Shown piece by piece: positions 1,766-33,071 of a DNA stretch of 64,000 nt. Source of the stretch: Raillietiella orientalis. Lineage: Eukaryota. The stretch is taken from NCBI GenBank assembly GCA_036172245.1, contig JAYWIR010000001.1, positions 11,966,001-12,030,000 of the forward strand, written 5' to 3'. The position numbers and the translations under genes were made by a program. Below the pieces are notes generated by a model, which searched no databases, was not told the origin of the DNA, and saw nothing but the letters and a program-made list of their open reading frames with translations. How positions within the stretch are numbered: the stretch's first letter is position 1; the number at the start of each line of letters is the position of its first letter.

Positions 1766-1789
1766 CATAACTGGAGTGTGTTCAGTAAC

Positions 1790-2450: not shown

Positions 2451-2559
2451 TCTTCATTCCTCGTGTCGGTAGTGGTAAATCAAGGCTGGCAGTGTGAACG
2501 GACCTGCGGGTGCCAAATCTCGGGATCTCCTGGAGTGAGGAGTTTTCGCCTGGGTTCGG

Positions 2560-3950: not shown

Positions 3951-6040
3951 CCCTCTTTCTGCCCGGAACGTGGCTGGCCACTCTCGTGGCCAAACCAACT
4001 TCATGGAAAGCTTCGTTCCATTGTTATGTCTCGGGGATCAATCATCCTGGCTGGGGTCCTTTGGAGACGCTTCGGGAGTCGACCACAGGAGACCACCTGC
4101 TAACGAGGAAGCCTTGGGAAATTCCAGAGGGGAAACGATTCGAAAGTTCCACCTTTCTATTGTCCAGGTGCATTGCTGATTGTGTCGGTCGAATTGCAAA
4201 AAATCAAACGGATCAACAGGGCGAAGAGTCGCGTAGAATCCTGGATGAGCTGGCAAGCAGCCAGCTCTGCCTTTCCAGAGAGGTCTCTGTCAGAGGAGGG
4301 GCAGGGTTGCCAAATGAGGAAAAAGAAAAAATATACGCCTGTCTTTGTGTGGCGGGAGGAGATCAAGGGAGCACCGGGGTCACATCGGTGTTCCTCCGAG
4401 GTCTTCTGCATCCCGTGACGAGTGCTGGGGCGAGCTCCATCTTCAAATCCACAAGCTGGGATCATCTCGCTGCACACCCTCAGGGAAACCGCCGCTCCCA
4501 TCTCGTTGCGTCCTATTCCGGTCGAGCTTCGTGCCGGGAATTCCTCGTCGTGGGCAGACGCAAAGAGCACGTTCCAGAGAAACGACGTCTGGCATTCGCG
4601 CGTTCCCCGTTATCCGACAAACAAGACCTCCCTTCCTCGAAAGGAAGGACTTCCCTTCTTCCTCCCGCGCACCGCAGTCCGCTGAAACGGCCCGCCTCGT
4701 ATTCCTCCTCCTCACGCGCACGTCACGTGAGTGCTCAGCAAGGCTGCTGGATCGGCACACCTTTCAGGCAGAGGTCTCCACATTTGCAAAGAGAACGAGA
4801 CCTTCGTCCACAGTGAAGCCAAATCCCCGTGAGTGGACCACCACGTGCCTCCCCCCTCGTGGATTCCGAATCTTCGAAGGTTCTCCCTAGGTACCACGCC
4901 CGTATCTGTTCTGTCGAAGAATTCTCTTTTTTCTCTTTGTGTCTGCGCGTTCCTTGCACCTCACCGCGTTCATGAGAAATGCACCTGGAGGAGGACTTCA
5001 GCATCTTTTCGTGGAAACGTGGACTCAGGAGAGCCCCATGAGAACTGAAGGTCTCCTCACAGAAAGAATATCCGAAGAGGCCCCGGGGACACATTTTAGA
5101 GCTCTTGTGCTCATGCTCTCATTTCTGCTTGTCCTACGGTCAAACAGCACTGGTCATCGGATAACAGATACAGGAGGGTGCTTCAGGGAGCGACGAAGCG
5201 TACTGGGGGCTGCCTCACCGAGAAAATGGTGCCATGACGAACGTTTAAGGATCACCAACCGGTGCTCCTGTTGGCAGCTGAGATACAGACAGACTCGAAA
5301 AGAGCTCCAGCTTGCGGAAGTCGCCAAGCATCACATGTCGCGCTGCACGAGGGGTGCTTGAGATCGGACGGCAGAGCTCTGAACACCACAGACGAAGAAC
5401 GCCCTGCTTCTGTTCCACCGCACGGAAGCTGCCGAATGGCCGGCCCTCTCGCTCGGCATCCTCTCCCCAGAGATTCTGAAACAAAGAAGTGGGCGCCCTG
5501 GCGTGCTTGCGAATCGATCGTCTGTTCCACGAAGGAAGAGGGAGGGCGGTTCGTCTGCTCGAATCCGATCCGAAAGGAGGAGGGCCAACGGTATGCTCTC
5601 ACGAATGCGGAAGAGAGGAAAACGGAAGCTGCGACCGGGTGGAGAAAAGCCCTTTTCTTCTTGGTGGTTAGACGACGGAAGATGGGGAGAACAATGCATT
5701 CGACAGGAAGGACGCACGGATTTTCGGTTTTCACGATGAGAGGTCAAGTCAGTCGGCGAACGCGAGGAGACGGAACAGCGGCGAACCTCACTGGATGTCC
5801 TCGCTAACCTGTGCAACTCTTCCAAGGCCACGTTTCGATTTCCTTCTGTTGAACGAATCTGAGTTTTTGAGCGCGTCCATCCTCTCATAACCGCGGGTCC
5901 TTCGTCTCTTGCGACGTTTCCTGAGCCATCCATTCGAAAGTGAACCGCAGGACAGGACGCAGCGATCCCGTGTGGTTGCCTCCCCCCTTGCTGCCGCAGA
6001 GCTGTCTGCCCGCCTCTCAGCAAGGGAGAGATATCAGACG

Positions 6041-7436
6041 ACCCTGTTGACGGTAGAGCCTGCGGCTAGACAAAGAGTTTTTCCGGGACACATCATCGAC
6101 CCCGCACCCTTTCGGGAGAGACGAAGGCACGTTTCGCTTTCGAACCCCTTGACCTAGGGGTGCACGGGAGCGCCTAACGGCCGATCACGAAGACGGCAGC
6201 TGTCAGTCCTGCGGGCACCGAGAAGTGGCAATAAGAACCGGCCAGGAAAATCGACCTTTCGTGCGGAGGAAAGCGCTCGGAGCGGCAACGGGAACGATCA
6301 GGCGCAAGGCGGACCGATCCCACGTTCCAGAGAGTAGAAAGCTGCACCCTGGAGTCGTTGGAGTCACCCGAAGATAAATCGCTTTTTAGTTGTCGCTCGT
6401 CGTTCTGTTTGCTTTGTTCCTCTCAAGAAAGAAAGAAAAACAGGTCCATTCATCATCTTTTCTACCACTCCAGCCTCCACGCGTATTAAGTCATTTGCTC
6501 AGCCAAAGATTTACGGTGACAGGTGTTGCCACTCTTACGGCATTGCCTCCCATGAACGCCGCGATTTCGAGATTCGGATGGAGGCGCTGCGAGCATTTTG
6601 TGTGCGCAGCACGGCGACGAGCGACTGCTCTTCCTGGAGCACACTTGACAGCTCCTGGTCGGAGAACAGGTGCAGGCGCCTGTGCCGCGGAATGTCGCAG
6701 GAGTCTGGATGCTCGTGGGAGGCTTCGAAAGGTGGCTTCTCTCGAGGGCGGCCCGCGCGCCACTCGCGCCACTTGAAAGTCGCGCGATCAGGGTCTCCCG
6801 TTGGCGTCCCTGAGCGCGTATAGGCTGACTGGAAAAAGACGCGACGGAGGGGTCCGAGAGGAGTTGCCGATGTGTGTCGTTCAAGGAGTACTGGGTGTGG
6901 TCAGTGAAGGAGATTCCGGGAAGGAGCTGGTGCGGCTTATGCAGTGGGATGCTGTTTTTCTCGGTTCGCTCCTGCGAAGGCTTCTGTGTGTCCCGTAGCG
7001 TGTTGCTAGGCGGAATCTCTGGAGAGGGAATGCCGAGCGAGAGGGTCGGCAATTGGGCCCTGCCGCAGTCCAAAACCAGGTGCGGGATCGATTCGGTCGT
7101 CTCGCAACTGGTACGGCTCGTGCATGAAGCTGCCTCGGAAACGAGGTGGTTGTTCTGGAAACCCCAGTGCAGAAATAGCAGCACTTTGTGTTTGCAACAT
7201 AGCGAGGACACGGAAGTGGGGCGTCCACTTCCGTGTCGCCCGTCTTCCAGCCGCACAGGAGTTCGGCGGCTCCTGCGATTGCCCAACCGTTGATCGGTCT
7301 TCAGCGCTCCCGTGCACCTCTAGGTCACGGAGTTCGAAAGCGAAACGTCCCTCCGTCTCTTCCGAAAGGGTGCGGAGCCGATGATCCGTCCCGGAAAAAC
7401 TCTTTGTCTAGCCTAAGGCAGTACCGCCAACAGGGG
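6041..7436. repeat. Diverged ~146-bp inverted repeat pair (6041-6187 and 7291-7436)
   Basis: GGCTAGACAAAGAGTTTTTCCGGGAC...CCGCACCCTTTCGG...CGTTTCGCTTTCGAAC...TGACCTAG.GGTGCACGGGAGCGC on plus at 6041-6187 recurs as the reverse complement at 7291-7436, about 80% identical by eye. Confidence 0.85.
6900..7240 (-). mobile_element. L1-like ORF2 C-terminal CCHC (zf-RVT-like) fragment
   Basis: VLLFLHWGFQNN...CTSRTSCETTESIPHLVLDC matches the LLHWG...CxxC...ES..HLL.DC motif of the other copies. Confidence 0.6.
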
Positions 7437-9693
7437 TTTGCCGGTGCTTGCACGGGACAACCGGGCATTGATGCCATCCTTGACACCTGTTCGCTGGTCG
7501 CCGGCCGAAGGAGTACGGAGACCACCAGCGTGGGCTTTGCCAATTCCCTGGATCATCTAGGATGCGTGAGCAGAATGCCCGAAACAGGGAGGGATCGCTA
7601 CAGGGGACACTCGTTTCCAGGTCGGCTTCTAAAAGGCTCCCAATCTCCATGCGGTCTCTCCGCAGGGTTTGTTGCGAGGAGGACTGCTGAGGAGAAGGAA
7701 GATTTTAGAGAAAGAAAAAGATGGCGCCGACTGCGCTGCGCTGCTGATATTCCGTCTTTTTGTGTGCGTGTCTCCCAGGCAACCAGCGTGCGGATGTGTC
7801 GCGTCATGCGAGCGAATCTCGTGGTGATTCGAGGGGTGATGGGTCGCATACCGGATGGCCAGAGTGACGACGTCCATGCCCTTGCTTGCCCGAGTTCCAC
7901 GGAAGGGACGTCGAGGATTCGAGCGTCTCACGCAGCGCACGCGTAAGCGGAGGACGTCCAGCAGTTTGGGTGCAACCGTTCCTGAGTTTCCAGCTTCCAT
8001 CGCAAGCGCAGACTCCTCGGAATCCACCCTCGCCTCTTGCGGCTCCCTCTTTTCCCTGTCTTCCACGGGAGAATCTTTCCCTGGTTGGTTGCGGACTGCG
8101 GATACGTCTTCCTCTGCGCTGCTTGCAGGTTTCCCAGCAGGCGTGTTGCCGCGAAGCCTTGTCCTTGCACCGGGGGTTTCCTGTGCAACCAGCGCCGACA
8201 CTTCGCTTCCATGAGCTGGGCAGTTGCGTGCTCGGGGTGCTCCAGGTGCGGAACGATTGATTCGATGCCGAACGTCTTGATGGGCTGCGGCGGCCACCAA
8301 GAACTGTGACGGAGGCTGTCTTCAACAGTCCTGCACCCCGAGGACGCCGTCAAGGACCTGCTGCGGCGATTCTTCTCGCGAGGAGGACTCTTTGCTGGAG
8401 CGGCGATGTCGACGGTGGACGGCTGCATCCCGCCAGGCGTTGGACACTCGGGAGGGGATGGGAGATCAGATGCCGCCTGCAGGAGGACCGTCTTCATCTG
8501 GAGGAGGAAGTCGTACCGGAAATGGGAGGGACCGGGCGCCGATGATGAGCAAGAAGGAACAGTTCCTTCCAAGGACCCACTGTCCCCATGATCTCTTCAT
8601 TTCTTTCTTTGCCTCTTCCCCTTCCCTTCTCGTTTGGCAACCGCCCCTAGTGTTGATGAAGTCCCCTCGCGGACGTCTCCTCGCTGCTTTTGTCTCGGGA
8701 GTTGCGTTCTCGGTGACCTCGTTTGCCTTCGATTTTACTTGTTTCCCGAAGGAACGCCCGGAGTGACCACGTGATAAACGAAATCTTTGAGAGGCTTCGC
8801 CGTGCTCCTGGAGTTGTCTGGAAGGACAGTACAGCTGCTTTGTCGACGGGTGGCAGTTTGAGGTTTGAGCCGCTGTTCCCAGCCGTGCGGAAATGTTCTG
8901 AAGGAGTCGATTTCTTTTCGTGGGGAGAAACAGCTCTGTAATGTGTGACATGCAGATGGTGGAATGCTCGGTCACGACGAGTCGTTTATTTAATAAATAA
9001 ACCACAAGTCGGAGGGGAATAGCGTCCCCCGAATACAAGAGATGCCAGAAAAGAAGAAGAAAAAAGAGCTTTGTGGATGACCACCGGCGTGCAGGCAAGC
9101 CAGTGCTGATTACCAGACCTCGAATTGTTGCAGTTCCATTTCTTTTACGGAATTCGTCGTATTGGCATGCTTGCCCCCCTACCCCCCATCCCTAACGATT
9201 CTAGGAGGGCCTCCCTTGGCAGCCTAGGCACTCTGCCGCTGTTCTTTAGAGGCAACCTCTTTTGGTGGTTGTCCTTTGGCCGCTACTGCACACGCCGAAC
9301 TCTGATAACCACACGGAGGCTTCCGGATGCCTCTCGGCCAATCTTTCGAAGCGCGTAGTTGGTTTCAATGTTCTCCCTTACGCTGGCTCCAGGCTGCCAA
9401 AAGCTGCTTGCGCTTTCCTTGCATTGCTCTGCGCGTGGCGCTTACCCCAAAGCCATTAAAAAGTAATATTCCGAATTTTACTGCAAAAAGACGGCTGCCG
9501 TAATCGATGTTACATAACAACTTTTTTTTCTTCCTTCGACGGAGACCGTGCAGTTGCGTCGGAGATAAAAGGGCAGCCTCCGGGGGTCCTCTGCACCATT
9601 CCTTGTCTCTCAGACTGAAGGAAACGGTTTGTAAGAGACCTCCGCCCTCCAGGATCGAGAAAATCCCCCAATCGGGAAGCCTGTGGTTGACAG

Positions 9694-12133
9694 ATGCCGA
9701 CTTCGAGGACGTTTCTGTTCCCCCTGCTCGCAGCGGGACTTCTTTGCCTTCACCGGTAGGATGTGCGGGGCGATCCCGCAGATTCCCTAATTTGTTTGCT
9801 CTGTGCAGAACTGAAGCGGACCCCAACGATGCTGGAAAATTGTCCGGGCAAGAGAAGCTGAGTCTGAGTTTGAACGGCAAGGTAGGTCACTGCTCCAGGC
9901 CTTCCTCACGCTATGGATTCAGGGCTTCTACGTGATGGATGTGACCGCGGGCACTCCGCCCCAGACCCTGCAGCTGACCCTGGACACTCACGAAAACGCG
10001 ACGATTGTGGCGGACTCGCAATGCAAGCAGGAACTCTGCCGTGGGTTTTCCCGGACCGCGGCTCCTTGCCTTCTCGAACGTTCCTCTCTCTACCAGGGGC
10101 CGTTCAGAGATTCAGCAGCTTCCGTTCAACCAGCTGGAGTGGAAAGACGAGAATTTCGAGGAATCTTTTTTCAACGGTGGCAGTAGTCGATCAGGCGTAC
10201 GACCTTGCGGTAGGTGAATCTTTTACGAAAGGTGCGACGCAGTGCTGCCATCTTCTTGGAATTCGCGCACCGCCTCCAGGATGAACCAAAGAACAAATCT
10301 TCTAACATCAGCTAACCCAAAGGACCCTCCGTGGCATTCACGAAAGTGTATCGCAGCGGTTGCTATGCCGCCGAGGACGTTTGCCGCGTTTCTGTCGAGA
10401 TGGTCCTTCCGTTTGCGCGATGTCCCACAAGCCAACCTTAGCTCGCGTTCTCGCCGCTTCCCTCCTTGTTTCCAGAAAGAACGTCACGAAGGTCTTTCGA
10501 AAAGCTTTGTCTTCCTCCTTTCCTACTTCGGTCTGACCGAATGCAAGGAGCCATTCGAGAACGCTTTTCTTTCGCCTTGAGGCTTGCAAAATGAAAGCAA
10601 AGGGAGGGGGACGAGGACAACACAGGCTGCGAGCTGCAAATTTCCAGACGCCCAAACAAGAGGGAAGGCTCATCTATATCGGACCCAACAACCGAACGAT
10701 GCAGAGCATCTTTTCGCTGAGACGCTCTAGCTCTTTCTTGATACACGTTGTGCACCTCGGCAGCTACTCCATATCGAGAACGAACCTGGAAGACTTTGCC
10801 AAACACGTGAGACTGGGCGCATTTCGGATGAGGTTCTCTTTCGACGGGTAAGGCGATGGACGGTTGGGCACATGCGCACCCCTTTGGGCGCTCAGGAAAT
10901 CCGGAGGGACTCTGGACGTGGACTTCGACAAGATGACGGGCAGCGGAAGCGCCCCCGAGAACGGCATTGACATCGGGCTGGAGACGGGACCCGATTACGC
11001 CATCGAGTTGTACAGGTAGGAGCGCTTCCCAGGTTTTGCCTCCCCCTCCCTGCAACACACTGCGAGGGTGAGCTCTGGGCCTCGTTCTCTAAATATTTCC
11101 GAGAGCTCCCTCCAGCATGCGAGGTTTCTGCTTCCTTCGCTTTCGATCCAAAAAGCGCGGAGGCCTATCTCCGGCAGCGTAAGCAGAATCCAAACCTCCG
11201 GCGGTCGAAACGCTTGAAGATGCTTTCTGAGTCGCCTTTGGTAGGCTGCGGATCCTCCAGAGCGGCAACGAAATTTTGAAGGAGAGGAATCTGTACGCAC
11301 CCTTGCGTATGAACAAATTCCTCAGCACCGCTCCTAAGTCTTTCACCGAGAGGCTGGCGAAGCTGGTTGACGCTTCTCCCAGTGGGGGATTTTACAAGGT
11401 CGGTTTCCTCACGAGCAATAGAGGACAAGCGAAGGACGTCTTTCCAGTTCAAGTGCAACGCGAATTCCGGGTACAAGCCCACCGTAGAAATCTCGTTCAG
11501 CCTGATGAAAAGCTTCACCCTTCATTATGACGACTACCACTTCAAGGTAGGTGAACAGCCTGACCCTCCGCTTGCGACCTCCTCGTGGGAAAATTTCAAT
11601 GCCGAATCGCTTAGGCTGTGGCGGGATCTTTCCGAAGAACCCCTCGTGTCTCACGCTTCTTCCATCGCCTTGCGCTGCAGCCATGGTAGCGTACTCAACT
11701 GCCATCTTGAGAGGTTGAGAAGCAGAGCATGGATGACTAGGCTGGTCTCATTTCTTCGTAAATGTCGCTTTCGAGTTCACCTCGTCCTCCGAACTTCACG
11801 TGTCTCTCAGCTGAGCTTCTCAAGGTCGCATTTTCCTCGGGGCGAACCGAAGCTATGGGAGCTTTTGCATCTTCATGCTCGCCTTCAGTCTCCGTCTTCT
11901 TGGGTCAAATCTGCCAGAAACCCCTGTCCCTTCCAAGAATTCTTCTGCCTGCAGAGAGTGCCGGTCACGTTCGTATCTTTTTGCAGATAAACAACGATTG
12001 CTACCTCATATTCGTCTCCTCATCCATGAATACTCTCGAGCTGTCTACGAGGATGTTGGAAAAAGTGATCACAACAATTGACGTCTTGAAAGGAGAGATA
12101 CGTTTCGAGATCAAGGAGCAAACAAAGGCATGA
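9694..12133 (+). CDS. Secreted pepsin-family (peptidase A1 fold) protein, predicted catalytically inactive; 9 exons, 361 aa
   Basis: Exons 9694-9755, 9809-9881, 9923-10040, 10097-10209, 10648-10847, 10896-11015, 11245-11398, 11448-11546, 11987-12133. All introns GT-AG, total 1086 nt open. Signal peptide MPTSRTFLFPLLAAGLLCLHRTEA. Segments GFYVMDVTAGTPPQTLQLTLDT, CKQELC, FSSFRSTSW, SGGTL, FKC...KPTVEISF...FTLHYDDY and NDCYL...VITTIDVLKGEIRF are collinear with pepsin/BACE. Confidence 0.85.
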
Positions 12134-12680
12134 GAAGGATGGGAAATCGAGAGGAAACTTTACGTGGCGGTTGGACCGGGGTATCCATGGGAATTGCTGG
12201 CGTGAAGTTTTCCGTTTCTGAAGATTTGAGGTTGCAACGTGTGCTAAAAGCTTTCTTTGAGTAGTGTGACCTTGGCAACAGTTTCCTTCTCCTACTAATT
12301 CCGACTGAAAATAAACCTATAATTCTGAGGCACACAAGAGTCATCATTTCGAACTTGAGCCCTGTGGAGCTACAGCTGACGTGCCACTTAGTCGGTGACG
12401 ATTAGGGCTTCATCGGTCGACTTTGAGAAAGAGACTTTCCTTGGTAAACGGCGGTCTCTGAAAGTCACGTGGAGAATCAGAACAGTCACTTACGTTTGGT
12501 ACTCAGACGTGGAGGTCATCTTGCTGGTATGGCTTGCCTAGGTTTTCGAAAAACGCTGTCGTTGCTTATCTCGTGGACAACAAGGCTGAGCATCAGCTGA
12601 GAGCATCCATTGGGAGTGCTCTCTTCCTTAAGAACGACGAGCGTTGCAGTTTTGCAATGCCCTCCCACTGCTCTTGCAAA

Positions 12681-13000
12681 GGACGATGGAAATCCTTTCG
12701 GATTTGTCTGTTTCGTTTCTTCCCTCTCAGTTTTCTTTTTTTCGCATTGTCTTCTTTTTGGTTCGCCAAGTGCTGAAGAACCGTTCGGCCCCTCAGGGAA
12801 GGCCTACGAAACTATTCAACACTGTGCACGTCAGCCGAATTGCGTGTAACTCTTCAATTTATGGGGTATAATCCCGGACTGGGTTCGTAGGGAAGGACTA
12901 CGGATCCAGGAAGGACTCTGGAGAAAAAGAGTTTGTTCCTCTTACGCTTGGTGGGAGGTCCCGAAGGAAACCCTCCTCCCTCGTTACCTCCGATTTCCTC
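12681..13000 (-). mobile_element. SINE-like element, copy 2 (3' part only)
   Basis: GGACGATGGAAATCC, then a pyrimidine tract, then TTTTTGGTTCGCCAAGTGCTGAAGAACCG and GGATCCAGGAAGG...GTTCCTCTTACGCTTG, shared with the other copies. Confidence 0.7.
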
Positions 13001-13029
13001 ACGGACACGATGCCAGGGCCTTTCTTAAC

Positions 13030-14910
13030 ATTTCAATCAATCTCACAATTTGTGGTAGGACACGTGGTCCTACCACGCTCAATTTGTCCGTGGACCTGCC
13101 GGGTCACTGGCACGCAGACCGGCGAGGTTCGCCTCGGCAGCGGAGGGCAGGGAGAAACAAAAGAAAAAAAAAATAAATAAAAGTCCTTTGGAGGGCCGGT
13201 AAGGGATCGCAGTCCTCTGGAGTCCTCTGCATCCTTCCTGGAATGCCGGCTGGATCGGTCCTGATTGTACCCAGGTGGGGTCATCTTGCTGTTATCCGCA
13301 GAAAGCGAAGTGCATGCTGGACGGCGTCTCTTTCGTTTCGCTCCTGCTTCAGCGACGCTCCAGATCGTCACAATCCCGCGGATGCAGCAAAGTGCTGCTA
13401 GGGATGCAGCCAGAGTGAGGGTGTCGCTCAGGAAGAGGCGCTTTACAACATATCTGGAATTGCCATCCGGGGTTTCAAGGGTCGTGGTCAAGCGTCCCCA
13501 AAGGTGCAGGAGGGCAGCAGAGGAGGTGCGGGAAGGATTCCCGCTCCACGCACCTTGCACAGTTCGGGTCCACCCCTCCCCCGTGTCCAGTGATGCCAGC
13601 GGGTGTTGCACGGGAGGTCCCAGTGCAGCAGCATCAACGCTGACTCCTGCTATTCCAAGAGAAGAGTGCTGCTGCCTTCGAACTCTGAGGGTCACTTGAG
13701 GTCTTGGCTGGGAATCTCGAGCGGCTCGCTCCAGCGTTGCAGTCCTCGTGAAAGGGCGTTCGGGGTCGCAGCGTCCGCTAGCTGCCCGCCCACTCATGAA
13801 CTTCCTCCTTCCTGCGATCTCACAGGAAACTAACCACTCCGACGGTTGGCTGCCGCCAAGTGCCTTCGTCAGAAAAGACATCACTGCAGCGAGGAGGTCC
13901 GCTCCGATCACGCGCTCATTCTGGAACTCTCCAGAATCTTCCTCAGTGAGCAGCGCGCGTGGCTGCCGAGTCGCAGGCAGTTTCCACACTTATGAGATGG
14001 GCTCGTTTACCTTCGCCCGCGTGCCAACTGTTTCCTCTAGATAGGCGCTACAGTTGGCGGGGCAACAGGCCATTCAGCCGTTCTCATTCGCCAATATGGC
14101 CATGAGTCCAAAGAGGTGACCGCAGCTTCTCAACTTTTGACCGGGGCACGGAAGGTAGGAGGCGAGTCCTTCCATGAAGAGCAGGCGTTTAAGAACGTAC
14201 CAGGGAGAGCTCCAGTACGTCACTTTGATGGCCAACATTCTCCATCGCGGCTGGATTTCTGTCCCCTCCAGCGTGAGGAGGCCGAGGTCCGCTGTCTCCC
14301 ACAGAGCACACGAGTCCATCGGCGAGATTCGGGACCCCACAAGACTATTCTCAATAGGGACCGTGTCCACTTTTTTTCCTCTTTGGGGACGGAGGAAACA
14401 AAAAGTAGGGGGCGGAGGAGGGGAGCCGCGAACGCGTTCCAAACAGCGGTCCGTCCCGGCAAGTAGAACTCGCCATCCAAGAACGAAACGATCGCCAACC
14501 CTACCTTCTAAAGACGGTGAGAATAGACTTCTGCTGGGGCAGAAGTCCCACAACGGAACGCCAAGGTTCTTGATGTACCCGTCCGTGGGGATCCCCAGGA
14601 GGATCCAGTCCGGCCGTCCAGACCACGCCGAGCCGACATAAACGATGGACGACTTCGCCCTGTTCACCACCAGGCCCGTCTCGCGGCGTAGCAACTCGAA
14701 GAAGTCCTCGAGCGCACTCGCCGGGGTGGACCCGGGAAGCAGCAGCAGAAGATCGTCTGCATAGGCCGACACGGCAGGCGTGCCTGGACACGAGCTCGGC
14801 AGGGTTGCCAAAGTCTCCTTGTATGCTCTCAGCACCAACTCGAAGTGGATGCTGAAGAGCAAGGGGCTCAGACTGCCTCCCTGCCGGATGCCGCGGAGGA
14901 CGGGCACGCG
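13030..14910 (-). mobile_element. 5'-truncated L1/Tx1-like non-LTR retrotransposon, copy C (RT C-terminal half, CCHC region, 3' UTR; decayed)
   Basis: ORF 14074-14907: RGIRQGGSLSPLLF...SAYADDLLL...TGLVVNRAKS...IKNLGV, the conserved C-terminal RT motifs. Downstream frames are broken but homologous to copies A, D and E. Confidence 0.9.
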
Positions 14911-15009
14911 GTCTCCGAAAAACTAGTGGTTTCCCCGCTTGTTTAGGCACCCCGGTGTTTACTTTAGGATGAAAACAGTACTTGCTGCTGCTTTAACACT
15001 GGGAGTTCC

Positions 15010-15880
15010 CGTGTAATCAGCGCTAAAGCCTCGTTTCCAGGGAAGTTGTTTCCCGGAACTGCTCGAGGTGTTGGGAGATCGAGACGCTCGGGCACCTTTT
15101 GCTCGACTGTGGTGCCCTCCGCGGACTGTGGCGGTGGCTGGCTTTAGGCGCCCCGTTCCAGGAGGACTCTGAGAAGGATCTGCGGTGGCGTTTTTTCAGG
15201 AGCAACGGATTTTCAGTGGCGCCGTAGTTCCAACAGCTTTTTAATTCGCGACATTGCTGAGACCCGCTACGCCATGGGGACGAGAGCGCAGTGAAGGGAG
15301 GTCCACAGTCTGGCAGCCGCGTACATGAGAATGGCTGTAAGGTGATCTCACCTGGAAGAACAAACAAAGGAGGAGATCGTCGACATCCACCGTCGGTTGA
15401 TGGACAGTTAAGAACGGTGGAACCCGGTGGACCTTTCCCTTTACCAACATCTTTTTTTTTTTTTCCTCATCTCCCATCCCCTTTTGCTTCGCAACTTCCC
15501 CGGCGTTTTTGTTTTGACCCCAGTACCTCCCGGCGCTATCTTAAAGACCCCTGTCCCATCCCACCACATTTAATTTTTTTTGGCTGTCTCCCACCTCCTG
15601 TCCGGTTCCAAACTTCCGTTATGCCAGCCTGCGTGCCAGCAGACCCTCCCCATTGCTTGTTTTGTCGTCGGTTGGGAACTCTGCTCCCAGCTGGTTTATT
15701 TTCTCTAAAATAAACGCCCCGGCGTGACGGGGTGAGAAATCCCTTGGGCATTCTCTGCGGAGATAACGTTATCTCCCTCAGGGGCACTAGGTCGGCAGGG
15801 TGACGGCCACATCTCGCCTTCTGCCGTCGCCGCGCAGCCCGTTGACGTTCCAACAGGCCACACGGATTCGGCGGCGGGAG
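15010..15880 (-). mobile_element. Small L1-like fragments (post-RT piece ~15.0-15.35 kb; APE endonuclease start ~15.73-15.88 kb)
   Basis: RIRVACWNVNGLRGDGRRRDV is the APE N-terminal WNVNGL motif. LRSRPHGVAGLSNV resembles the L1 P...GGLGL motif. Confidence 0.55.
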
Positions 15881-16184
15881 GCGGGCCCAGGAGTAACTCC
15901 TGGGAAGTTGATGCTGCAGCTCCCGCCACTTATTCGGGCGGGGGCGCAAGCAGAATGTCCCTTCCATGGTGCACCTGCTGGCCCACTCCATGGGGGTTGC
16001 TTGCTCGGCGTCGGGATGTGGGTGATTCCCACCGCAGGAGTCCTGTGTTTCCAAGCTGCCGGCTTCCCTTTCGGATGCCGGCTCGTTTCCCTCTTGGGGC
16101 AGGATGTGCCTCCTCGTAGTCTTGGTTTTACGTTTTCACTTCCGGGGGGAGGCTCAACGGAGGATGCGCTTGCAGCCTCGGGTT

Positions 16185-16810
16185 GACTTACGTCACTAGG
16201 GTTGCTAGGGTCGCAGCAAAGCGTTCCCATAGGGGCCGGAGGGCAACACAATCTACAAGCAGGTATAGGAAGGATTCCCGTTCCCTACACCTGCTACAGT
16301 TCGGGCTTGTGCCCCTCAAGTCCAAGGATGTCGGTGGGCGTTGCATTGGAGGCCCCCAATGTAGCAGTAGTATCGCTGACTCCTGCCAACTGAGTGGGAG
16401 GGTGAGAGTGTTCCGGAGTACTGAGAGCCACTCGAGGTCTTCCAGGGAAATTCCCAACAGCTCATTCCAGAGCAAAAGTCCTTTAGGTGGGACACTCGGG
16501 ATCACAGCGTCAGTCAGCTGTCCCGTGGTTCGCGCACTTAACGTTTTTTCTTCGACATCCCATCTCGCAGACGACCTTCCATGTTTCCAACTTCTGAAGA
16601 TCTGCTCCCTGAAGGAGGGCAGCTCTACGGCGAGAGAGGTTCGCTCTGCCCACGCCCTTCTTCCGAGATGAACGAAGATTTCCTGGATCGAGTACTTGCT
16701 GAAGGATAAACAGCGCAGGCGCTGCGATAACATAGGACTCGGCTCCCGGATCTTCGCTCACGTGCGAACGGTTTCCTGCAGTCAGGCACTACCGTTCACG
16801 TGGCAGCAGA
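16185..16810 (-). mobile_element. L1/Tx1-like ORF2 C-terminal fragment, copy D
   Basis: ORF 16188-16733: SAILLLHWG...NCSRCRERESFLYLLVDCVALRPLWERF (zf-RVT-like region). Confidence 0.8.
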
Positions 16811-16859
16811 AAATCCAGCTGTTCTTCCTCGTCAGAGTGTTTCAAAAGATCCCACTCTA

Positions 16860-17720
16860 CCTTGTGTCCCGACCCATCGACACAGGTCATGGTCAAAAAA
16901 CTGATGATCGACGCTATCCTCCATTCCTGGTTGTCCTTCCAGCAAGTTGTGTGCGCGCATTGCCGCGCAGAGCTCGTCGGCCGCGTGCTCCCGTGCTCAG
17001 GGCGCGTTGGGAAGCAGGTGGAAGAGGTTGAAGTCTCCGCCTTCCAGGTGCTTCCTGCGCACGCCTGCTTCGGACAACCATTCGAGTTCCAGGTCGTTCA
17101 AGAACGTGGTGATTCTCTCCGCGTACCCGTTTTTGTTGCTGGGAGCTCACACGTTGGTCAAGACGAGGTCGATGGAGCCGGTCCAACTGAGGACCATCTG
17201 GCCGACCCGATCTTCCTTGTCGAAGCGCACGTCCCTCACGGCAGCAACTCTTTTTGATGAGCAGACGGAATACGAACGCGGTCTCAACAAGTTCCTCACG
17301 ACCCTTGCCACCAACATCGATCACAGCCAGTAGAGCGTCGGCGGGGAGCTTTTGGGGTGCTGAACACAGCGGCGAGGTTGCCGCCAGCGGTCGGCTGCGG
17401 CGGGGCCGACTTCTGGCACCCTCACGCTCCCACGAGCTTCCTTCCTCAAATCAAAAAGAGTTGCTCTTCCTTCATGGCTGTGTGGACGGTGGGCTCCAGA
17501 AGGTAGGAGACCCCAAAGGATTTGTGGGAACCGCAACGTCCCAACTTTCGCAGCAGCAGTCCCTCCGCGACTCTTTCGATCTCCTGAGCTTCTCCTGCGG
17601 AGATCATGTGGATCTCCTGCAGTAGAGCCAGACCGAAGTTTTGTAGGGTGGCGGGCACGTCTCATCTTCTGCCGTCCTCGTTCAGCCCGTTTACGTTCCA
17701 GCGGACCACACGGAATCTGC
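16860..17720 (-). mobile_element. Decayed APE-type endonuclease domain of an L1/Tx1-like element
   Basis: RFRVVRWNVNGLNEDGRR*DVPATLQNFGLALLQEIH contains the WNVNGL and LQE.H motifs of non-LTR endonucleases, with stops and frameshifts. Confidence 0.75.
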
Positions 17721-17769
17721 GGCAGGAGGCGAGCTCATTTGCTATTGCTGGGAAATTTTACACCCGATG

Positions 17770-19020
17770 CATTTATTTATATAAAAATAAACTGATAAGT
17801 CAGCGACAGAGAGCTTAGTTCTGCCACGTTACAATTGTATCGATGGCAACTTGCCTAGAAACGGAACGCAGGCCTGCGAGGTTCCCCTGGTCAGAAGAGG
17901 AGAGGGCTGGTGAACGAACAGACATAAAAATAAAACAAAAAAATGTATACAAAAAATTTGGAGGTTCGGGATGGGATCACTGCCTGCTGGGGGAGCGTCC
18001 TCTGCATCCTTTCCAGAATGCCTGCAGGTTTCTGTTTCACACTTCCCAGATGGGATAACATAGGACGCCATCCTCATGAAGAGGACAGCAAAATTGATGG
18101 CATTCCTGTCGTTCTGGTCTCCTCTTGCGCTGTTCCATGCAGCCATGATCCCGCGGCACAGTGCTGTTAGGGATGCGACCGGCGTGAGGGATTCGCGCAG
18201 GAAGATGCACTTTAAAAACGCCCCTGGGGTTGTTGCTTTCGGGAATCCTCAGGAACGCAGCAAAGCGTTCCCACAGGGAGCGGAAGGCAACGCAATCCAT
18301 GAGCAGGTGCAGTAGAGACTCTCTCCTTCGCCGCACCTGCCGCAGTTGCTATCACCTCTTCCCCCGGGTCCAATGATGTCGGCGGGCATTGCACGGGAGG
18401 TCCCAATGCAATAGAAGGATCGCCGACAACTGCCACTTAAGGGAGTGGGTTGCACTGTTTCGACACACTGGGGGCCACTTTACCACCTCCGGAGGAGTTC
18501 TTAGCAGCCCTCCCCAGCATAGCAGCCCTTTTAAAGGGACACTCGTGGTAGCAGCGTCCGCTAGCTCCCGCATATTTAGATGTTTTCTTCTATTTTCGAT
18601 AGTGCACGTCACCTCCTATCTTATCGATGGTCGCTCGCTGTCCCTTGTTCCTTTCAGGGAGAGCAGCACTAAGGCAAGGGGATGAACGACGCCCCAAGCA
18701 GATTCCTGTTGTCCAGGATCTCCCTCAACAGCATACGAGCGCATCTGCTGGTGTGCAGGCAGATGAACTCCGCTCCCTCGCTCGTGCCGTTGATTTTTGC
18801 GCCACGCCGAAACGGACTCCTGCAGGCAGGCAGTCTCGTTCTCGGGAAGGCAGAAGATCCAGGGTTTCCATCGGACCAGGACAACCATTTGTCGGAGCTG
18901 GGAGCCAAGATGTATCCGACTTCGCTCGGTGGCCACAACGACCGTAGTCAGTCCCTCGCAACCGGTCGCTCGCTAGGCAACGATTGGTGCCGGAGTGCAC
19001 CAAGGTGTGGCCCGCAGCTT
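17770..19020 (-). mobile_element. L1/Tx1-like 3' portion, copy E
   Basis: SAILLLHWDLPCN, NCGRC..RESLLHLLMDCVAFRSLWERF and MAAWNSARGDQNDRNAINFAVLF, followed by a 3' UTR homologous to copies A and C. Confidence 0.8.
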
Positions 19021-19163
19021 GGACTCAAAGGGAGAGTCTTTTGAGCTGGAGCAGACGCGTCATGCTCTCCAGCGTAAGGAGGCCCAGTCTATCATCCCCT
19101 GGCGGAGCACAGAAGTCTTTGAGTCGGACTCTGGCCATCTCCCTGTCCCCATAGAGCTTTTTT

Positions 19164-20249
19164 CTTTTTTTTCTTTTTGTTTTTATTTTTATTTTAAGGC
19201 CAGTAGCGACTCTACGAGGAGATCGTTACTATTGGCCTAGGACGATGGAAATCCTTGGGTTCTTCTTTTTCTACTGTCTTCACTGTTTTCCTTCCAGATT
19301 TTTTTTCTTTAAGGTTTCTTTTTTTTTTGGTTCGCTAAGTACCTCAGAGCCGGTCGCGTGCCTCGCGGCGCACGTGGCTCTTTTTAAACATTAACACACT
19401 GTTTTATTTCCACGTCTCTCCGCCCGCGGCAACTCTCAGGGGGGGCGTGTAATTCTTCAGTGTAATTCTTCAGGATAGGGGGCACTCCGGAATAGGGGCC
19501 CACCCTATGAATCCAGGAAGGGCTCGGAGTCCGTTCCTCTCACGCTTGAGGAGGGATCCCCCCGGACAGGGGGGATCGCACCTCCCACCCTGGTTGTCTC
19601 CGAAGGAGAACCCCGAAGGGAATTTCCTTCCTCATTCTCTCCGGAGGGACATCCCCTAATGGGGGGTGGTCCTCTCCATTTCAACTTCTCCGAAGGGAAC
19701 CCGGAAAGGATCCACTTGTAGGAATTTCTTCTCCGGAGGGAACCCGCAAGGGAACCGCTCCTGTTCACTCCTCTGAAGAGAACCCCGAAGGGACACTTCC
19801 GAAACGCAGAAGGGGCGCTGCAGCTTCCCGCAGGGAATCGCTCTCTCTTGCTTCCTTGTGCACACTCTGTGAAGAGGCGACGACTCGGAGGGACCCCCCC
19901 AAAAGGGCAGTTCCGCTCCTTTGAACAACTGGAGAGGTGCTCGTGAGGGCCCCTGCTCCATCTTGAAACCGGAGGCGGTCCCCCGGTGACGGGGGTCCAC
20001 TCTCCGTTGCACGACCGGAGGGGGAGTTCCCCAATCCTTTATTCCTGGGAGGACCCGAAGGTCGACTCCCATGGTTCTGACCTTCATCGGGAGGCCTCCG
20101 GCTTTATCCACTGCCGGGCCCACGCCCGAATGTCTCGGCCAACCAGCGCCGTTGCAGGAGAAACTCTGAACCCAAACGACGCAGTCTCGTCAGTTATCTG
20201 CCGAAGTATTCGAACCCGCGACGCATGGTGCCACGCGTGGAAACCTTAA
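19164..20249 (-). mobile_element. tRNA-headed SINE-like element, copy 3 (near full length, A-rich tail, ~15-bp TSD)
   Basis: Minus strand starts TTAAGG...GTGGCACCATGCGTCGCGGGTTCGAATAC (B box) and ends in an A-rich tail. Flanked by CCA(T/C)AGAGCTTTTTT at 19149-19163 and 20250-20264. Confidence 0.8.
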
Positions 20250-20394
20250 CCACAGAGCTTTTTTTAGGAGGTCCTCGGTCTTTCTCTTGATGATGACAGG
20301 AGATCCAGGTGTTCTCCTTCACCAAGGCAACCATTTGTCTTACTTGAAGGCCACAATGCCTAAAACTGGCACGAGACGCTTCCCGGTTTCTCTG

Positions 20395-20775
20395 AAGAGC
20401 GCTCCCCGTAGAAAGCAGAGCACTTATTAAGACTCCGGGAAACAACGCTCCCAGAGCTGGAATCAACCAGCCCCGTATACGGCTCCATCTTTGCAACCGG
20501 AGGAGAAAAACCCCGAAGGGCACCTTGAACTCCTGGAAAGACTCCGAAGAGTCAGCTTCCAATCCCAGAGCCAATCAGCGGGGACATCCAGGGGCTTCTG
20601 GTTTCCAACCAGCACCCCCCACCTGAAGTCTGAATACCAGCTTCATCCCGCGGGAGAGACTCCAAACATTCACGACGCACCCCCATTTCTAGGCGTTGGT
20701 CCTTCTCTGGGTGGAATTTGAACCCGCGACCCTCGGTGCCACGTGGGGATGCCTCAACCTTGCGGCCGCCAACGC
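20395..20775 (-). mobile_element. SINE-like element, copy 4 (5' head and part of body)
   Basis: Minus strand TGGCGGCCGCAAGGTTGAGGCAT (A-box-like)...CCGAGGGTCGCGGGTTCAAATTCC (B box). Body matches copy 1 (CACGACGCACCCC.ATTTCT, TCAACCAGCCCC...TACGGCTCCATCTT). Confidence 0.75.
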
Positions 20776-21034
20776 GGATCATAGAGTTTTTCTTTTTCTT
20801 TGGCGACTGCTTTCGATGCAACCGAAGTGTGCATAATCTTCCATTTTTTCTCCAAGACCGCAGACTGAAGAGCTTGAGGTCTCCGTCTTCTTAGCGGACC
20901 GTCGGGAGAAGACTGCTCCCCTCTCTGTCTCGACTAGGTTGCACAGAGAACGCCTCCACTCCCATGCTAGCTGCCTGGCAACACTGCGCACGGTGCCTGG
21001 TCTCCTGGCGGATCCGATGCCTGCAAACCATCGT

Positions 21035-21620
21035 AACGGTGGAGCATTGAGCATTCCCGGACACGGGCTGATTTATTTGGGTGTGGCGCCGATAGAGGCT
21101 GGCAACTCTCGGATGCCTCCGTCGACCGAACGGAATCGGAAGTCTACCCTCCCGGGGTCCTCCCAGGAACCAAGAAGCCGGTTTCCTTCGGAGTTTACCC
21201 CCCTGGGATGGACCATCTATCTCGTACCATGGGGCTGGTGGATTGGTGCCTCTCCAAAGTGCGAAGAAGCGCGCTGCTCCCTTCGAGTTCTCTTCGGAAG
21301 AGGAAACGGAGCGGTTCCCTTGAAAACCCACTCCGGAGAAGAAATTTCAGGAGTTCCCCTCTTCAGGGTGTTCCCATCGGAGGAAGTTCTCCGGAATCTT
21401 TCCTAAATTCATGGGGTGGTCCTCTATTCCGGGGCATTCCCTCACTTGAAGTGTTGCTACATGCACCCTCGGGAAACGTGGAACGTGTGCAAGGGCTTCG
21501 TGAGTCTCCAGGCGGGCGGTTTCTTCAGCACTTTGCGAACCAAAATGAAGAACAAGAAGAAGAAAGATAGAAAGGAAGGAAGCGAAAACGGAAGAAACAC
21601 CCCAAAGGGTTCCCATCATT
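21035..21620 (+). mobile_element. SINE-like element, copy 5 (opposite orientation; head missing or degenerate)
   Basis: Reverse complement of the body, hairpin array, CTTCAGCACTTTGCGAACCAAAA block, A-rich linker and terminal GGGTTCCCATC seen in the other copies. Confidence 0.75.
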
Positions 21621-22723
21621 TGTGTGAAGGATTTCACCCCTACACTGGTCGGGCTATGGTCAAGCACGAACCTGCGATGGAATTCTCTGGTCATGTGGTC
21701 TCAGGAAACCCTCGTGCAGCCCGCTGAACTTTTGCAAGCCAAAGCATGGAGCAGAACCAGACTGCCATCGCCGTAGAGGAGCGCTTCTTTCGGTTCCATC
21801 GTTTGCGTAGTCTTCTCGGTGGCGCGCGCTCACCAGGGTTTCAATCTCGCTTTCTCCGCAATCTGCTCAGATGCAGAGCACCATTCCATCAGACCTCTGG
21901 ACCGGTTTTGGATTGATCTGCATTCGATTTTAGTCGCGGTTCCGAAGAGGGAAGAGCATTCACATTTTAATACTGTCAATCTGCTGCATTTGTGCCCACG
22001 GCGCAGAAGCGGCAGCAACGACAGGTCGCGAAGGTGGATGAGAATCTGCCAAATTAGCGAGAGTCGGAATGGATATTCCTTTTGGATGAGGTGAGGAATC
22101 GTGCTTCTTGGTACGTGTCACGTGAACGATGAACGCCGATGAATTCATGAATGCTGCCACGTTGTGCACATTCGACATGCCGTTTGCAGCTCTGTACTTT
22201 GTGTTTCTTTGTGGGTTTTCTTGTAAGCGCACCACAGAAATGAGAAGCCACTTTGAGCTCATCCCTGTTTGGAAACTGCGATGCCTTGAGGTTGAGATCA
22301 ATGAATCACATGTATGGCATTGGTATCGGTTGGAACGTTGATGAAAGCATTAAGAGATTATTTGAAAAGTACTTTCTGTGGGAATAATATTTTGTTGGTG
22401 ATTTCATGAATTCAAACTGGTGCAAATCATTGCCGGTGCGCCTGCCAATGTACCTAAGAGAGAGTTCCAGTGCAACTAAAAAAGATCATGCTGAAACAAA
22501 AAGGTCATCAACTTTTCAGTCAGTTTCCGGTCTAGTTAGTTACACCACCCATTGGTGGATGGGGAAATTGTGTGAGGCATGCTCACGCTGAGAGGGATCA
22601 GTTTGTTCGGGAAGGCTCGCTGCAGCTCTGGAGGCGTATCTTAAGCACTGAGTCTCCTTGAAGACGCGCTTCTCCAGAAAAGACAAATACGGACCTGTCT
22701 GCCTAAAGAACTGGAACAATTGA

Positions 22724-30710: not shown

Positions 30711-31217
30711 GCGGGGGGCCGCTTTCCAGCCAGGAGGTGCGAAGATTCCGCCTGCAAGCAAAGTCGGAGCAGGGGGGGGGGAGAAACCTTCCCGGAAAAG
30801 TCTTTGGCAAACGCACTCCATTCTTAAGATGTTAGCACACCTGAGGTGTTTCCTTCACCCTTCCTTTCTCTTTCCCGTGTTTACAAGGGAGAATCGGATT
30901 GGATGCTTTTCCCATTCTCTGCTTCGCTAGGTACTTGCGATCAATCGGCCTCGGGGCTTCAGGAGGAGGCGCAGCGCGTCGGGATGCCGGAACGGGTTTG
31001 TTGACCACTCGAGGGGCGCGCATAGCATGCGCGAAATCGGAATGCCCCCTTGAGCACGCGGGGGGACGTTCGCTTCCGTCGGTTGCTAGGATCGCGGGGA
31101 TTGTTCGGAACATCCCAAAATCTCGAGCTTCTTGGGTTCGCTTCTCCTCCCCCCGCCTCAGTCCCAGGTGCCCACTTTCCGACTGCCTCTTGACTCCCTT
31201 CGTTTTTTGCTGACATC

Positions 31218-33071
31218 ATGAGAAGGCACATCCAGGTTTTCAAAGCTCCCAAGCAGGAGCAGGTGATCAGGCCTGTCCTGCGAATGCTCCAAAGGGGACC
31301 GGCGGATGGCAAGGCCGGTCCGAAGCAGGGCAGAGGGACCTGCGAGGAAGTCGCGTGCGGCGGTGGCAGGTCGCCAAGAAGCGTGGGCTCCGTCCGCACG
31401 AGAAGACACGGAAGGAAATGCTGCGCTCCCCCTTTCTTCCTGGGTTCGCGGACCACTTCTGCGTACTTGGAAGAGCTGGAAGCTCTCTCCTCCGCCCTTG
31501 ATCCTTCCGACTGCGCAGACCCTGCGGGGAAGCTGAAGATCTGCTACCGCAAGCGGAAGCCCGCAGCGAATATGAGCAGAGAAAGGTCGCCTGCATCCTC
31601 CCCGCGCCGACAGATGAGCTGCCCCCTTCCTTCGTCGCTCGACCACAAGCCGCCGACGCACACGGCCATCATCCAGATCCAAGGGAGGAGAGGTGCTTCT
31701 TGCAAGATGGCCGACCGACAGAGCGTCTCCATAGACCTCGACAGCCCCAGCAAATCCGCGAGCAGCGCAGAAAGCGTGGCGCTGAGCCGGAGGTCGGCGC
31801 GCCCGAGCTGCGCCGGCAGGAAATGCCCTACACTGCAAGAATGTCTCCAGAGCAAAGAAGAGAACCACAAAAGCGAGGGCAAGAAATGCAAGAAGGGGAG
31901 GCAGAGCTCGGGTCTGGACTTCCAAAGGTCTTCGAATCGAGTCGACCTTTGCGGACCCAGCGCCTCCGCCGCGCCAAGGTCCCCGCAAACCCTGGGGAGC
32001 CTTTTCTACTGTTGCGGCAGTGACCCGCCGCTGGGGACGGCGGAAAGAGAGGACGCCAAGGTCCCCAAGAGCTTGGGCAGCATTGCCGACATGTGCACAA
32101 CCCCGACCACCTCGGACGTGTCTTCCGAACGCCCTCTGGAGATCCGCATCAGCCGGGGAGCGAATCGCCCGCCTCAAGGAGGGCGAATGAGGCGCGAGAA
32201 GTCACTCTGCGAGAGTTGCTCCTTAGGCATTTCCGAAGGAGAGGTGGCTCCCCTTGCCGTTGCGGCGGACAGAGCCAGCAAGGCGCACAGAGGGACTCGG
32301 CGGGTCTACAAACGGCGACTCCTCTGCCCCCCTTACCGAGGACTCCTCCCCACCATAGAGGGCGAGGTGCTGCTCCTGTCGGCTGGAGGAGCCGTCGGTA
32401 AAGGGGACGGAGGTTGCTGCTGCTGCCTGGCGAAAGCTCCAGAGTGCCCCATGTGCGGCTACTCCCCGTGGGATCTGAGAGTGAAGCAACGCCCCTTCCG
32501 CTACCAGAATCGGAGCTGCAAGAAGAGATGCCTTCACTACCTCGGAGTCCCCGAAGAGCTGGCCATCTGCGTGCAGAAAGAGCGCCCCGGAACTGCGTCG
32601 CAGCTCTCCGAGTACGCTTACGAGGTCCCGGACTTCGGGATCCCCCCTGGCCGTACGGGGAAGAAGGTGGCGCACCGGAAAGGAGCGGGCAGCAGGAGCG
32701 CAGAGCCCGTCGACCAGAGCATCTGGCTGCTGCGCGAGGAGGAACAGCCTCTCTTCGTGCCACCCCGGCGCGCGCCCTTCAAGAGGACAGGATCAAACCG
32801 CGAGAGGAGCGTCACCCCTGGCTGCGCGCGCACGTCGCCCCACCAGATCCGTGGCGGCCACAGGGGCCGGAAGAAGAGCTCCAGGGTGCTGCCCCCCGTC
32901 ATCTACGAGGCGAACGAGCCGGACACGCCCACGGATTTCTCCTCCGACGAGGGCTCTTTGTACCTGAGCTCCCAGTACCTCGCCTCAGCACCGGCGAAGG
33001 CAGCAGGCTGCGCCAACCTGGGGACCCTGAGGCTCGTTGACGTCAGCAGCGGTAACTATGATTTTTTCTAG
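31218..33071 (+). CDS. Hypothetical intronless basic, Ser/Arg/Cys-rich protein (617 aa)
   Basis: Longest ORF in the window, ATG to TAG, G/C-biased third codon positions. A decayed paralogous copy lies just downstream. No known domain recognised. Confidence 0.6.
   Translation: MRRHIQVFKAPKQEQVIRPVLRMLQRGPADGKAGPKQGRGTCEEVACGGGRSPRSVGSVRTRRHGRKCCAPPFFLGSRTTSAYLEELEALSSALDPSDCADPAGKLKICYRKRKPAANMSRERSPASSPRRQMSCPLPSSLDHKPPTHTAIIQIQGRRGASCKMADRQSVSIDLDSPSKSASSAESVALSRRSARPSCAGRKCPTLQECLQSKEENHKSEGKKCKKGRQSSGLDFQRSSNRVDLCGPSASAAPRSPQTLGSLFYCCGSDPPLGTAEREDAKVPKSLGSIADMCTTPTTSDVSSERPLEIRISRGANRPPQGGRMRREKSLCESCSLGISEGEVAPLAVAADRASKAHRGTRRVYKRRLLCPPYRGLLPTIEGEVLLLSAGGAVGKGDGGCCCCLAKAPECPMCGYSPWDLRVKQRPFRYQNRSCKKRCLHYLGVPEELAICVQKERPGTASQLSEYAYEVPDFGIPPGRTGKKVAHRKGAGSRSAEPVDQSIWLLREEEQPLFVPPRRAPFKRTGSNRERSVTPGCARTSPHQIRGGHRGRKKSSRVLPPVIYEANEPDTPTDFSSDEGSLYLSSQYLASAPAKAAGCANLGTLRLVDVSSGNYDFF

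Follow-up and report, generated by a model that had tools for sequence, protein, structure and literature searches.

The element at positions 19164-20254 of the window (the whole 64,000-nt stretch that was analysed, C1:11,966,001-12,030,000 in a 210-Mb genome of 491 contigs) very probably belongs to the non-autonomous retroposons and behaves as a tRNA-derived SINE. A sequence-only reading of this DNA had proposed an unusually long tRNA-headed retroelement, and this proposal stands: the copies are dispersed, have independent target site duplications (TSDs), poly(A) and a tRNA-Arg-like head, and the young form (1,076 nt) is longer than the 75-662 nt of the 175 families given in the accessible part of the SINEBase description (PMC3531059). 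The element is not a short SINE with unrelated flank, not an LTR or the UTR of a LINE, and not a product of local duplication. Set against SINEBase by the published definition, the family is an oversized variant of the tRNA-SINE, and no named family is assigned to it.

The first 22 kb of the window is a GC-rich (48-64%) repeat island and the genic part beyond 41 kb has a GC content of 29-40%; GC drops sharply from the one to the other. Exons in the AT-rich half are ANKRD13-like (40569-41042, minus strand), Drosha-like (54250-54741, plus strand) and RMND1-like (57850-58548, minus strand). The best match of the exon at 54250-54741 is Drosha (E 1e-68), which indicates an animal genome, perhaps an arthropod-like one from the look of the Drosha sequence. 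When the window was searched with a profile of the old subfamily of the element, five related copies were found near the positions that had been claimed, and the order of modules described for them (head, body, hairpin array, block, A-rich linker) was borne out. The length of about 1.1 kb that had been given for the family applies to the focal copy only: an older subfamily of about 0.87 kb is represented by the other four, all fragmentary and 69-78% identical to the old consensus. The copies, the parts of the focal copy and the sequences next to it are as follows.

1022-1737, minus strand: copy 1, old subfamily, 78% identical to the old consensus; head partly lost, stops right after the block
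12672-12993, minus strand: copy 2, old subfamily, 74%; 3' third only, the 5' 540 nt being absent; adjoins a LINE-A 3' UTR
19164-20254, minus strand: focal copy, young subfamily, near full length; 93.4% identical to the young consensus, covering consensus nt 18-1091
20373-20782, minus strand: copy 4, old subfamily, 75%; head and 5' half only
21060-21630, plus strand: copy 5, old subfamily, 69-73%; without head
20265-20372, minus strand: LINE ORF2 upstream of the focal insertion; the translated flank corresponds to ORF2 immediately ahead of the duplicated site
20250-20264, minus strand: 5' TSD copy of the focal element, 15 bp, overlapping the first element bases; 14 of 15 nt equal 19149-19163
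20197-20254, minus strand: tRNA-derived head, 5'-clipped in the focal copy; degenerate A box at about 20244-20254, B box at 20206-20216
20047-20196, minus strand: 5' body, non-repeated hairpins, common to both subfamilies in the old/young alignment
19473-20005, minus strand: hairpin array, about a dozen degenerate units of about 40-43 nt, expanded in the young form by internal duplication
19329-19380, minus strand: pre-linker hairpin (19347-19380) and block ending in GCGAACC (19329-19347)
19262-19328, minus strand: A-rich linker, predicted to be unpaired, internal priming site
19244-19261, minus strand: small stem-loop and CCATC of the sequence-only reading; sequence conserved, hairpin not stable in the focal copy
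19196-19238, minus strand: terminal hairpin, 43 nt, ending in a short T run
19164-19195, minus strand: degenerate poly(A) tail
19149-19163, minus strand: 3' TSD copy of the focal element; both flanks translate into one stretch of LINE ORF2
17862-19161, minus strand: 3' part of ORF2 of LINE family A, decayed, L1/Tx1-type, downstream of the focal insertion; found by tblastn and by blastn to intact copies

The old-subfamily profile places the focal copy at 19191-20261 (minus strand). The focal copy is without the first 17 nt of the family consensus; the 5' end of the family lies 17 nt further upstream. In translation, its two flanks join up as adjacent stretches of a LINE ORF2, and the duplicated codons appear at either side; the focal copy was therefore inserted into an older LINE. 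Several decayed LINE-A copies, nested or tandem, occupy 2598-3622, 13049-14912 and 15739-18570 of the window on its minus strand. A single inverted segmental duplication within the contig, of nearly 100% identity, has doubled both copy 1 and copy 2. Three probes place the inverted duplicate of window positions ~990-14919 at C1:11.516-11.531 Mb, with the duplicate of copy 1 at C1:11.53 Mb; the focal copy is outside the duplicated region. This duplication of copies 1 and 2 does not account for the family. Two pairs of inverted repeats in the window, 6042-6187/7291-7435 (146 bp) and 5431-5476/7013-7058 (46 bp), are each 87% identical and were absent from the fetched genomic loci; they are possibly a fold-back element or the remnant of a DNA transposon. 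A stop-free frame of 625 codons at 31194-33071 (plus strand), in a block of 61-65% GC, had no Pfam match, and a 216-bp direct repeat at 76% identity lies at 32503-32715 and 33903-34118.

A genome search with the focal copy gave 4,383 candidates, the best 40 of which were scored; apart from the focal copy itself, these are 86-92% identical, and they lie on many contigs. The 30 best loci yielded the young consensus of 1,076 nt, followed by poly(A); their identity to it is 91-97%. With copies 1, 2 and 5 as queries, 35 head-to-linker copies of the old subfamily were obtained, with a mean pairwise identity of 66.6% and a consensus of about 867 nt. The module order is common to both forms and extra units in the hairpin array lengthen the young one: the old form of about 0.87 kb gave rise to the form of about 1.08 kb through duplications within the array. 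The young set splits into diagnostic variants. Clustering of 92 heads gave one tight young cluster (31 heads) and no further usable subfamilies. The flanks differ at nearly all loci; a few genomic pairs, for example L205/L206, have common flanks. At C12:4.130-4.133 Mb (L013 and L025), the 3' flank of L013 repeats its 5' flank in inverted orientation. The pair L062/L063 (C46) and the two copies in L046 have near-identical bodies and different heads, which suggests conversion or template switching.

The number of copies was estimated in two ways. An exact 14-mer that spans the B box occurs 1,720 times in the genome, a count that includes a few true tRNA genes, and its reversed control does not occur. 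Because this 14-mer is exact in 23 of 31 young heads and in 13 of 61 older heads, the count suggests several thousand heads. For the second estimate, 20 of a planned 40 systematic 10-kb pieces (200 kb), all from contigs C1-C4, were searched: 10 elements, six of them with heads, were found in 8 of the 20 pieces and make up 2.9% of the bases. On reversed sequence the old profile had two matches and the young profile had none. Extrapolated to the genome, the two estimates agree on some 6,000 heads and some 10,000 pieces.

The head had been described as tRNA-like, with A and B boxes. The B box is indeed well kept, being among the best-preserved motifs of the old copies, and the head resembles tRNA-Arg(CCT); however, the A box is degenerate. 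When both consensus heads were aligned with a set of 30 of the 62 host tRNA matches, in which some tRNA types are not included, the best match to both was the host tRNA-Arg(CCT), with 50 of 78 positions (64%) for the old head and 46 of 77 (60%) for the young. The clipped focal head by itself aligned best with tRNA-Gly. Because of this alignment and the incomplete tRNA set, tRNA-Arg is the likely, not the certain, donor of the head. ARAGORN did not call a tRNA within the window; at a lowered threshold, some old heads were tRNA-like, with inconsistent anticodons. Therefore, the donor was judged by alignment. The first 41 nt are predicted to fold as one long hairpin in both subfamilies, with -25.8/-21.7 kcal/mol on the sense strand versus -17.1/-14.1 kcal/mol on the antisense strand. 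The promoter boxes are an indication that Pol III may transcribe the element. The lack of an internal T4 run in both consensuses was considered as a Pol III signature and rejected, because it does not reach significance (P(0) 0.05-0.92, depending on the null model); T4 runs do occur in individual copies.

The small stem-loop before CCATC had been taken as a conserved structure at the end of the element. It did not prove to be conserved as a structure: in the focal copy the predicted energy is -0.7 kcal/mol (z +0.78), and the z values of copies 2 and 5 are -1.9 and -0.25. Nor does the element end at CCATC, which is followed by the 43-nt terminal hairpin, 2-4 T and poly(A). Because the element continues to an ordinary poly(A) tail, it ends at an A tail like other SINEs. 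The terminal hairpin of the focal copy has z values of -3.0 on the sense strand and -5.2 on the opposite strand, where it folds better. It is present in 12 of 30 young copies and in 3 of 35 old head-to-linker copies, and T2-4 followed by an A-run stands at the end of 11 of the 12 full-length young copies. The eight best tail loci are all part of the element; three of these eight are 5'-truncated.

Young copies have a precise 5' end, 23 of 30 beginning at consensus nt 1. TSDs with a score of at least 9 were found for 13 of the 30 (12 with a narrower window), compared with 1.1-1.2% of 870 mismatched flank pairs; their lengths are 9-17 bp, and 17 of the 30 copies are without a TSD at this score. 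There are two main kinds of 3' end: 12 copies end with the terminal hairpin and poly(A), and 15 in the block or the A-rich linker, at consensus 935-1010 (five of these at 935-952, in the pre-linker hairpin or block); the other three end in mid-tail. Because the 30 young loci were the best matches to a full-length query, these end statistics are biased towards long copies. TSDs are present in 8 of the 15 linker-ended copies, which were thus inserted short and not shortened later by deletion. Moreover, each of the eight has a TSD whose first 2-5 nt match the bases with which the RNA would have continued (P 0.01-0.05 per copy versus random flank). These eight copies, with TSD and microhomology, arose by internal priming. 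In the accessible parts of two studies, tailless retropseudogenes are described as truncated at single-stranded A-rich internal sites with complementarity to the target (PMC5322556; also PMC5402677). Like these retropseudogenes and the internally primed Alu copies made by mammalian L1, the copies studied here have an A-rich internal truncation, complementarity of a few nt and TSDs. In mammals, as far as the same sources go, internal priming is a minority route; in contrast, 15 of 30 sampled young copies are so truncated here, in an invertebrate-type genome with an L1/Tx1-type LINE without poly(A).

The hairpin array has autocorrelation peaks at 43 and 83 nt in the young form and at 40 nt in the old, backed by unit motif matches and self-BLAST. 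The 19-nt block before the linker, which had been called conserved, is exact in one of the five copies (copy 2); the focal version differs and copy 4 has none. The hairpin content exceeds that of Markov controls, with 510 Watson-Crick-paired nt in the young consensus (controls 322-331 +/- 42-62) and 382 in the old (276-286 +/- 41-47). In this respect the earlier description of the element as highly structured is correct; however, 120-nt windows have z values of -3.3 to +1.3 against dinucleotide shuffles, so that "moderately structured" is the better wording. Given the array period of 40-43 nt, most of the hairpin content is explained by duplication of one hairpin unit.

Conservation of structure was checked by folding one consensus and testing the pairs in the other. 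Because head clustering gave no further usable subfamilies, this covariation check rests on the two consensuses, and because post-insertion decay dominates in individual copies, per-copy covariation was left out of the count. From young to old on the sense strand, pairing is retained at 21 of 36 changed pairs (P 0.003), and there are six double swaps versus 1.0 expected; from old to young, it is retained at 20 of 51 (P 0.044), with two double swaps versus 1.6 expected. The antisense strand keeps 8 of 31 and 7 of 27 changed pairs (P ~0.58). It also shows double swaps (four, P 0.009), because double swaps are strand-symmetric. In the head hairpin, 6 of 7 changes keep pairing, and when G-U pairs were barred from the fold, 4 of 5 Watson-Crick-to-Watson-Crick double swaps lay within the first 240 nt. 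In the hairpin array, 16 pairs are broken versus 10 kept, which is no structure-keeping signal. These results give modest support to conservation of the fold of the 5' domain (first 240 nt) and none to that of the array. By folding, changes to G-U exceeded those to A-C (22 versus 10, P 0.025; 22 versus 15, P 0.16, at a laxer cut-off). We rejected this excess as a sign of strand-specific RNA selection, because a C/T over A/G skew of the same size (15 versus 8) is present at unpaired sites; a gapless hairpin finder gave 20 G-U and 26 A-C, with no G-U excess.

As an alternative, the sequence-only reading had offered a retroposed structured ncRNA. This idea gained no support: Rfam gave no match, the bodies of the two subfamilies differ, and changes that keep the pairing are limited to certain parts of the sequence. 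Searches of Rfam at permissive E-values gave only chance-level matches in window positions 1-23000 (E 0.8-4.3) and in 10 loci (one at E 0.35), and 7SL, 7SK, HDV-like, hammerhead and other Rfam families did not match the element. A model for such an RNA is rodent BC1, which is the master gene for ID elements according to the available text of PMC1978531. In that text, BC1 has a tRNA-derived 5' long stem-loop, an A-rich centre and a unique 3' region, and many of its retroposed copies are without the 3' region. If the copies studied here were likewise retropseudogenes of one structured Pol III RNA maintained by the host, with host function driving conservation, the same three-part layout, the refolding of the head as one long sense-strand hairpin, the structure-keeping changes in the 5' domain and the many copies without the 3' stem-loop would be accounted for. 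However, we consider this improbable. Besides the Rfam result, the old and young bodies differ by insertions of whole units, and the young set has diagnostic variants, as would be expected if there were several sources. Among the 40 best matches that were scored, none is more than 94% identical to the most consensus-like copy, and no conserved master was seen there. There are thousands of copies, and SINEBase, in its accessible text (PMC3531059), parts SINEs from RNA pseudogenes by body sequence and number. BC1 as described in PMC1978531 is a single host gene of 152 nt with neuronal expression, whereas the family here is 6-7 times longer, has a hairpin array and often has its 3' module retroposed too; the likeness is one of layout.

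The family was also compared with the definition of the SINE class. In the accessible part of its description, SINEBase asks for a length below 1 kb, at least 100 copies and at least 60% identity to a tRNA, 5S or 7SL RNA over at least 60 nt, and counts an internal duplication as a subfamily change (PMC3531059). The young form without its tail exceeds the length limit by 8% and the old form is within it. The copies number far more than 100 and are not in tandem. The tRNA identity is 64% for the old head and 60%, which is borderline, for the young, as scored against host tRNAs and not against the SINEBase set. The longest ATG frames, 151 aa in the young consensus and 92 aa in the old, are too short for an RT, which indicates non-autonomy, and TSDs of variable length with an A tail indicate mobilisation by a LINE. 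Like the SINEBase tRNA-SINEs, the family has a tRNA head, more than 100 dispersed copies, a non-coding body, internal duplications that define subfamilies and an A tail; unlike them, it measures 0.87 and 1.08 kb and has an extra hairpin module 3' of a long A-rich linker. Canonical SINEs are typically up to 500 bp in the accessible text of PMC4994717. In the literature, mainly open papers without supplements, we found no description of the family or of a tRNA SINE longer than 1 kb.

LINE family A is abundant, with 8,014 candidates in a genome search. Its ORF1 carries a zf-CCHC domain and its ORF2 endonuclease, RT and zf-RVT domains, a layout which we take to be that of the L1/Tx1 group; an Atlas look-up of ORF2 gave nothing beyond these Pfam assignments. 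Sampling of RT hits gave three LINE families besides A; in the fourth RT family (L192, L197) the C-terminus may be of the restriction-like endonuclease type. Families A, B and D, which are unrelated, have AATAAA and a small GC-rich hairpin at the end and no poly(A) in the genome. The LINE-A 3' UTR carries a U-rich tract. No 3' homology between the SINE and the LINEs was found over the last 375 nt of 18 copies from four LINE families on both strands: in 72 local alignments with both consensuses the lowest P was 0.005 (antisense), and none survives 72 tests. An origin of the linker and CCATC from the LINE-B 3' end, seen by eye in three short, similarly spaced anchors, was rejected (best sense-strand shuffle P 0.08), as was pairing of the A-rich linker with the U-rich tract of the LINE-A 3' UTR, which is explained by composition (P 0.04-0.96 in 12 tests).

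Of the 30 young loci, 11 (37%) are situated within or next to LINE-A DNA, in both orientations, compared with 16 of 167 GC-matched control pairs (P 0.0004). The old copies show no such enrichment (4 of 35, P 0.76), and a fixed insertion site inside LINE-A was not found, the sites being scattered. Tolerated sites in repeat islands may explain the enrichment of the young copies equally well. Since a LINE that lacks poly(A) has to rely on short base pairing for priming, in line with the microhomology at the linker-ended copies, LINE-A is the likeliest helper, and we lean towards this L1/Tx1-type LINE as the one that mobilises the SINE. In the accessible part of PMC4494074, the SINEU elements and Tx1-Mar of crocodilians form a comparable pair, in which a poly(A)-tailed SINE is tied to a Tx1-type LINE via shared insertion targets. 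However, the SINEU heads are derived from U1/U2 snRNA and 90% of SINEU-3 insertions are in a single target element, as far as that source goes, whereas the family here has a tRNA head and a looser association (37%) with scattered LINE positions.

Several arrangements of the LINEs themselves were observed. RT matches recur every 5.2-5.7 kb on one strand at G000 C71:71454-94060 and also on C114, C53 and C33. At L200, a LINE-B 3' end is followed by the endonuclease domain of the next unit, and at L129 a second LINE-A 5' end comes directly after the first. These head-to-tail arrays (L194, L200, L129), many of them on small contigs or near contig ends, are possible centromere- or telomere-type arrays. 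Five of ten located LINE-A 3' ends (L127, L128, L132, L133, L135) adjoin one site, the antisense strand of the RT region of another LINE-A, either through target-specific self-insertion or because one composite was amplified. At L190 and L191, a LINE-B 3' end adjoins an antisense old SINE and a SINE fragment lies within another LINE-B 3' UTR; both SINE pieces break near positions 629-649 of the old profile.

The length of the element, its central duplicated GC-rich units and its degenerate A box could also be those of a non-autonomous LINE derivative or SVA-like composite that depends on Pol II and has a tRNA-like head only by accident, and the frequent sites inside LINE-A would allow read-through transcription. 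This is very unlikely: the common 5' end is precise and stands at the tRNA-like start, and the B box is among the best-kept motifs of the old copies. Moreover, neither profile matches the 12 LINE-A loci of 9.9 kb, other LINE loci match only at inserted SINEs, and there is no AATAAA before the tail, unlike in LINE families A, B and D. Elements of the LTR or solo LTR kind have a short TSD of fixed length and no poly(A), whereas the element studied here has TSDs of 9-17 bp, poly(A) tails and variable 3' ends. Origin as an LTR, from a DNA transposon or by segmental duplication can be dismissed almost entirely, because, although copies 1 and 2 occur twice by inverted duplication and a few pairs share flanks, nearly all flanks differ, the TSDs are independent and at unrelated sites, truncated copies occur at both the 5' and the 3' side, and terminal inverted repeats were not seen in either consensus.

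In the tRNA-SINE reading, Pol III would transcribe source copies from the internal A and B boxes. The head would have given up the cloverleaf for a single long hairpin, and the fold of the 5' domain would be mildly conserved in the source elements, the array having come mainly from unit duplication. The endonuclease and RT of a LINE would nick the target and prime cDNA where the free 3' end pairs with unpaired RNA; priming would occur at the tail or the linker because the remaining RNA would be folded. A wider proposal joins several claims: that the element is among the longest Pol III SINEs, that its BC1-like layout is independent, that all of the RNA except the A-rich linker is folded and this linker is a built-in priming pad for an L1/Tx1-type LINE without poly(A), that internal priming is a main route of amplification, and that the 5' domain is under RNA selection and possibly co-opted by the host. 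As a whole, we regard this joint proposal as speculative. The mechanism is of a known parasitic kind, with no new mechanism and no demonstrated host function.

If it is transcribed by Pol III, the 1.08-kb form would be about 1.6 times as long as the longest SINEBase family (662 nt). A pipeline with an upper SINE length of 700 nt, as in the accessible text of PMC11481361, would miss the young form, although the family makes up about 3% of the large contigs. With about half of the sampled young copies primed internally, the family may serve as a natural test of the choice of priming sites by a LINE RT.
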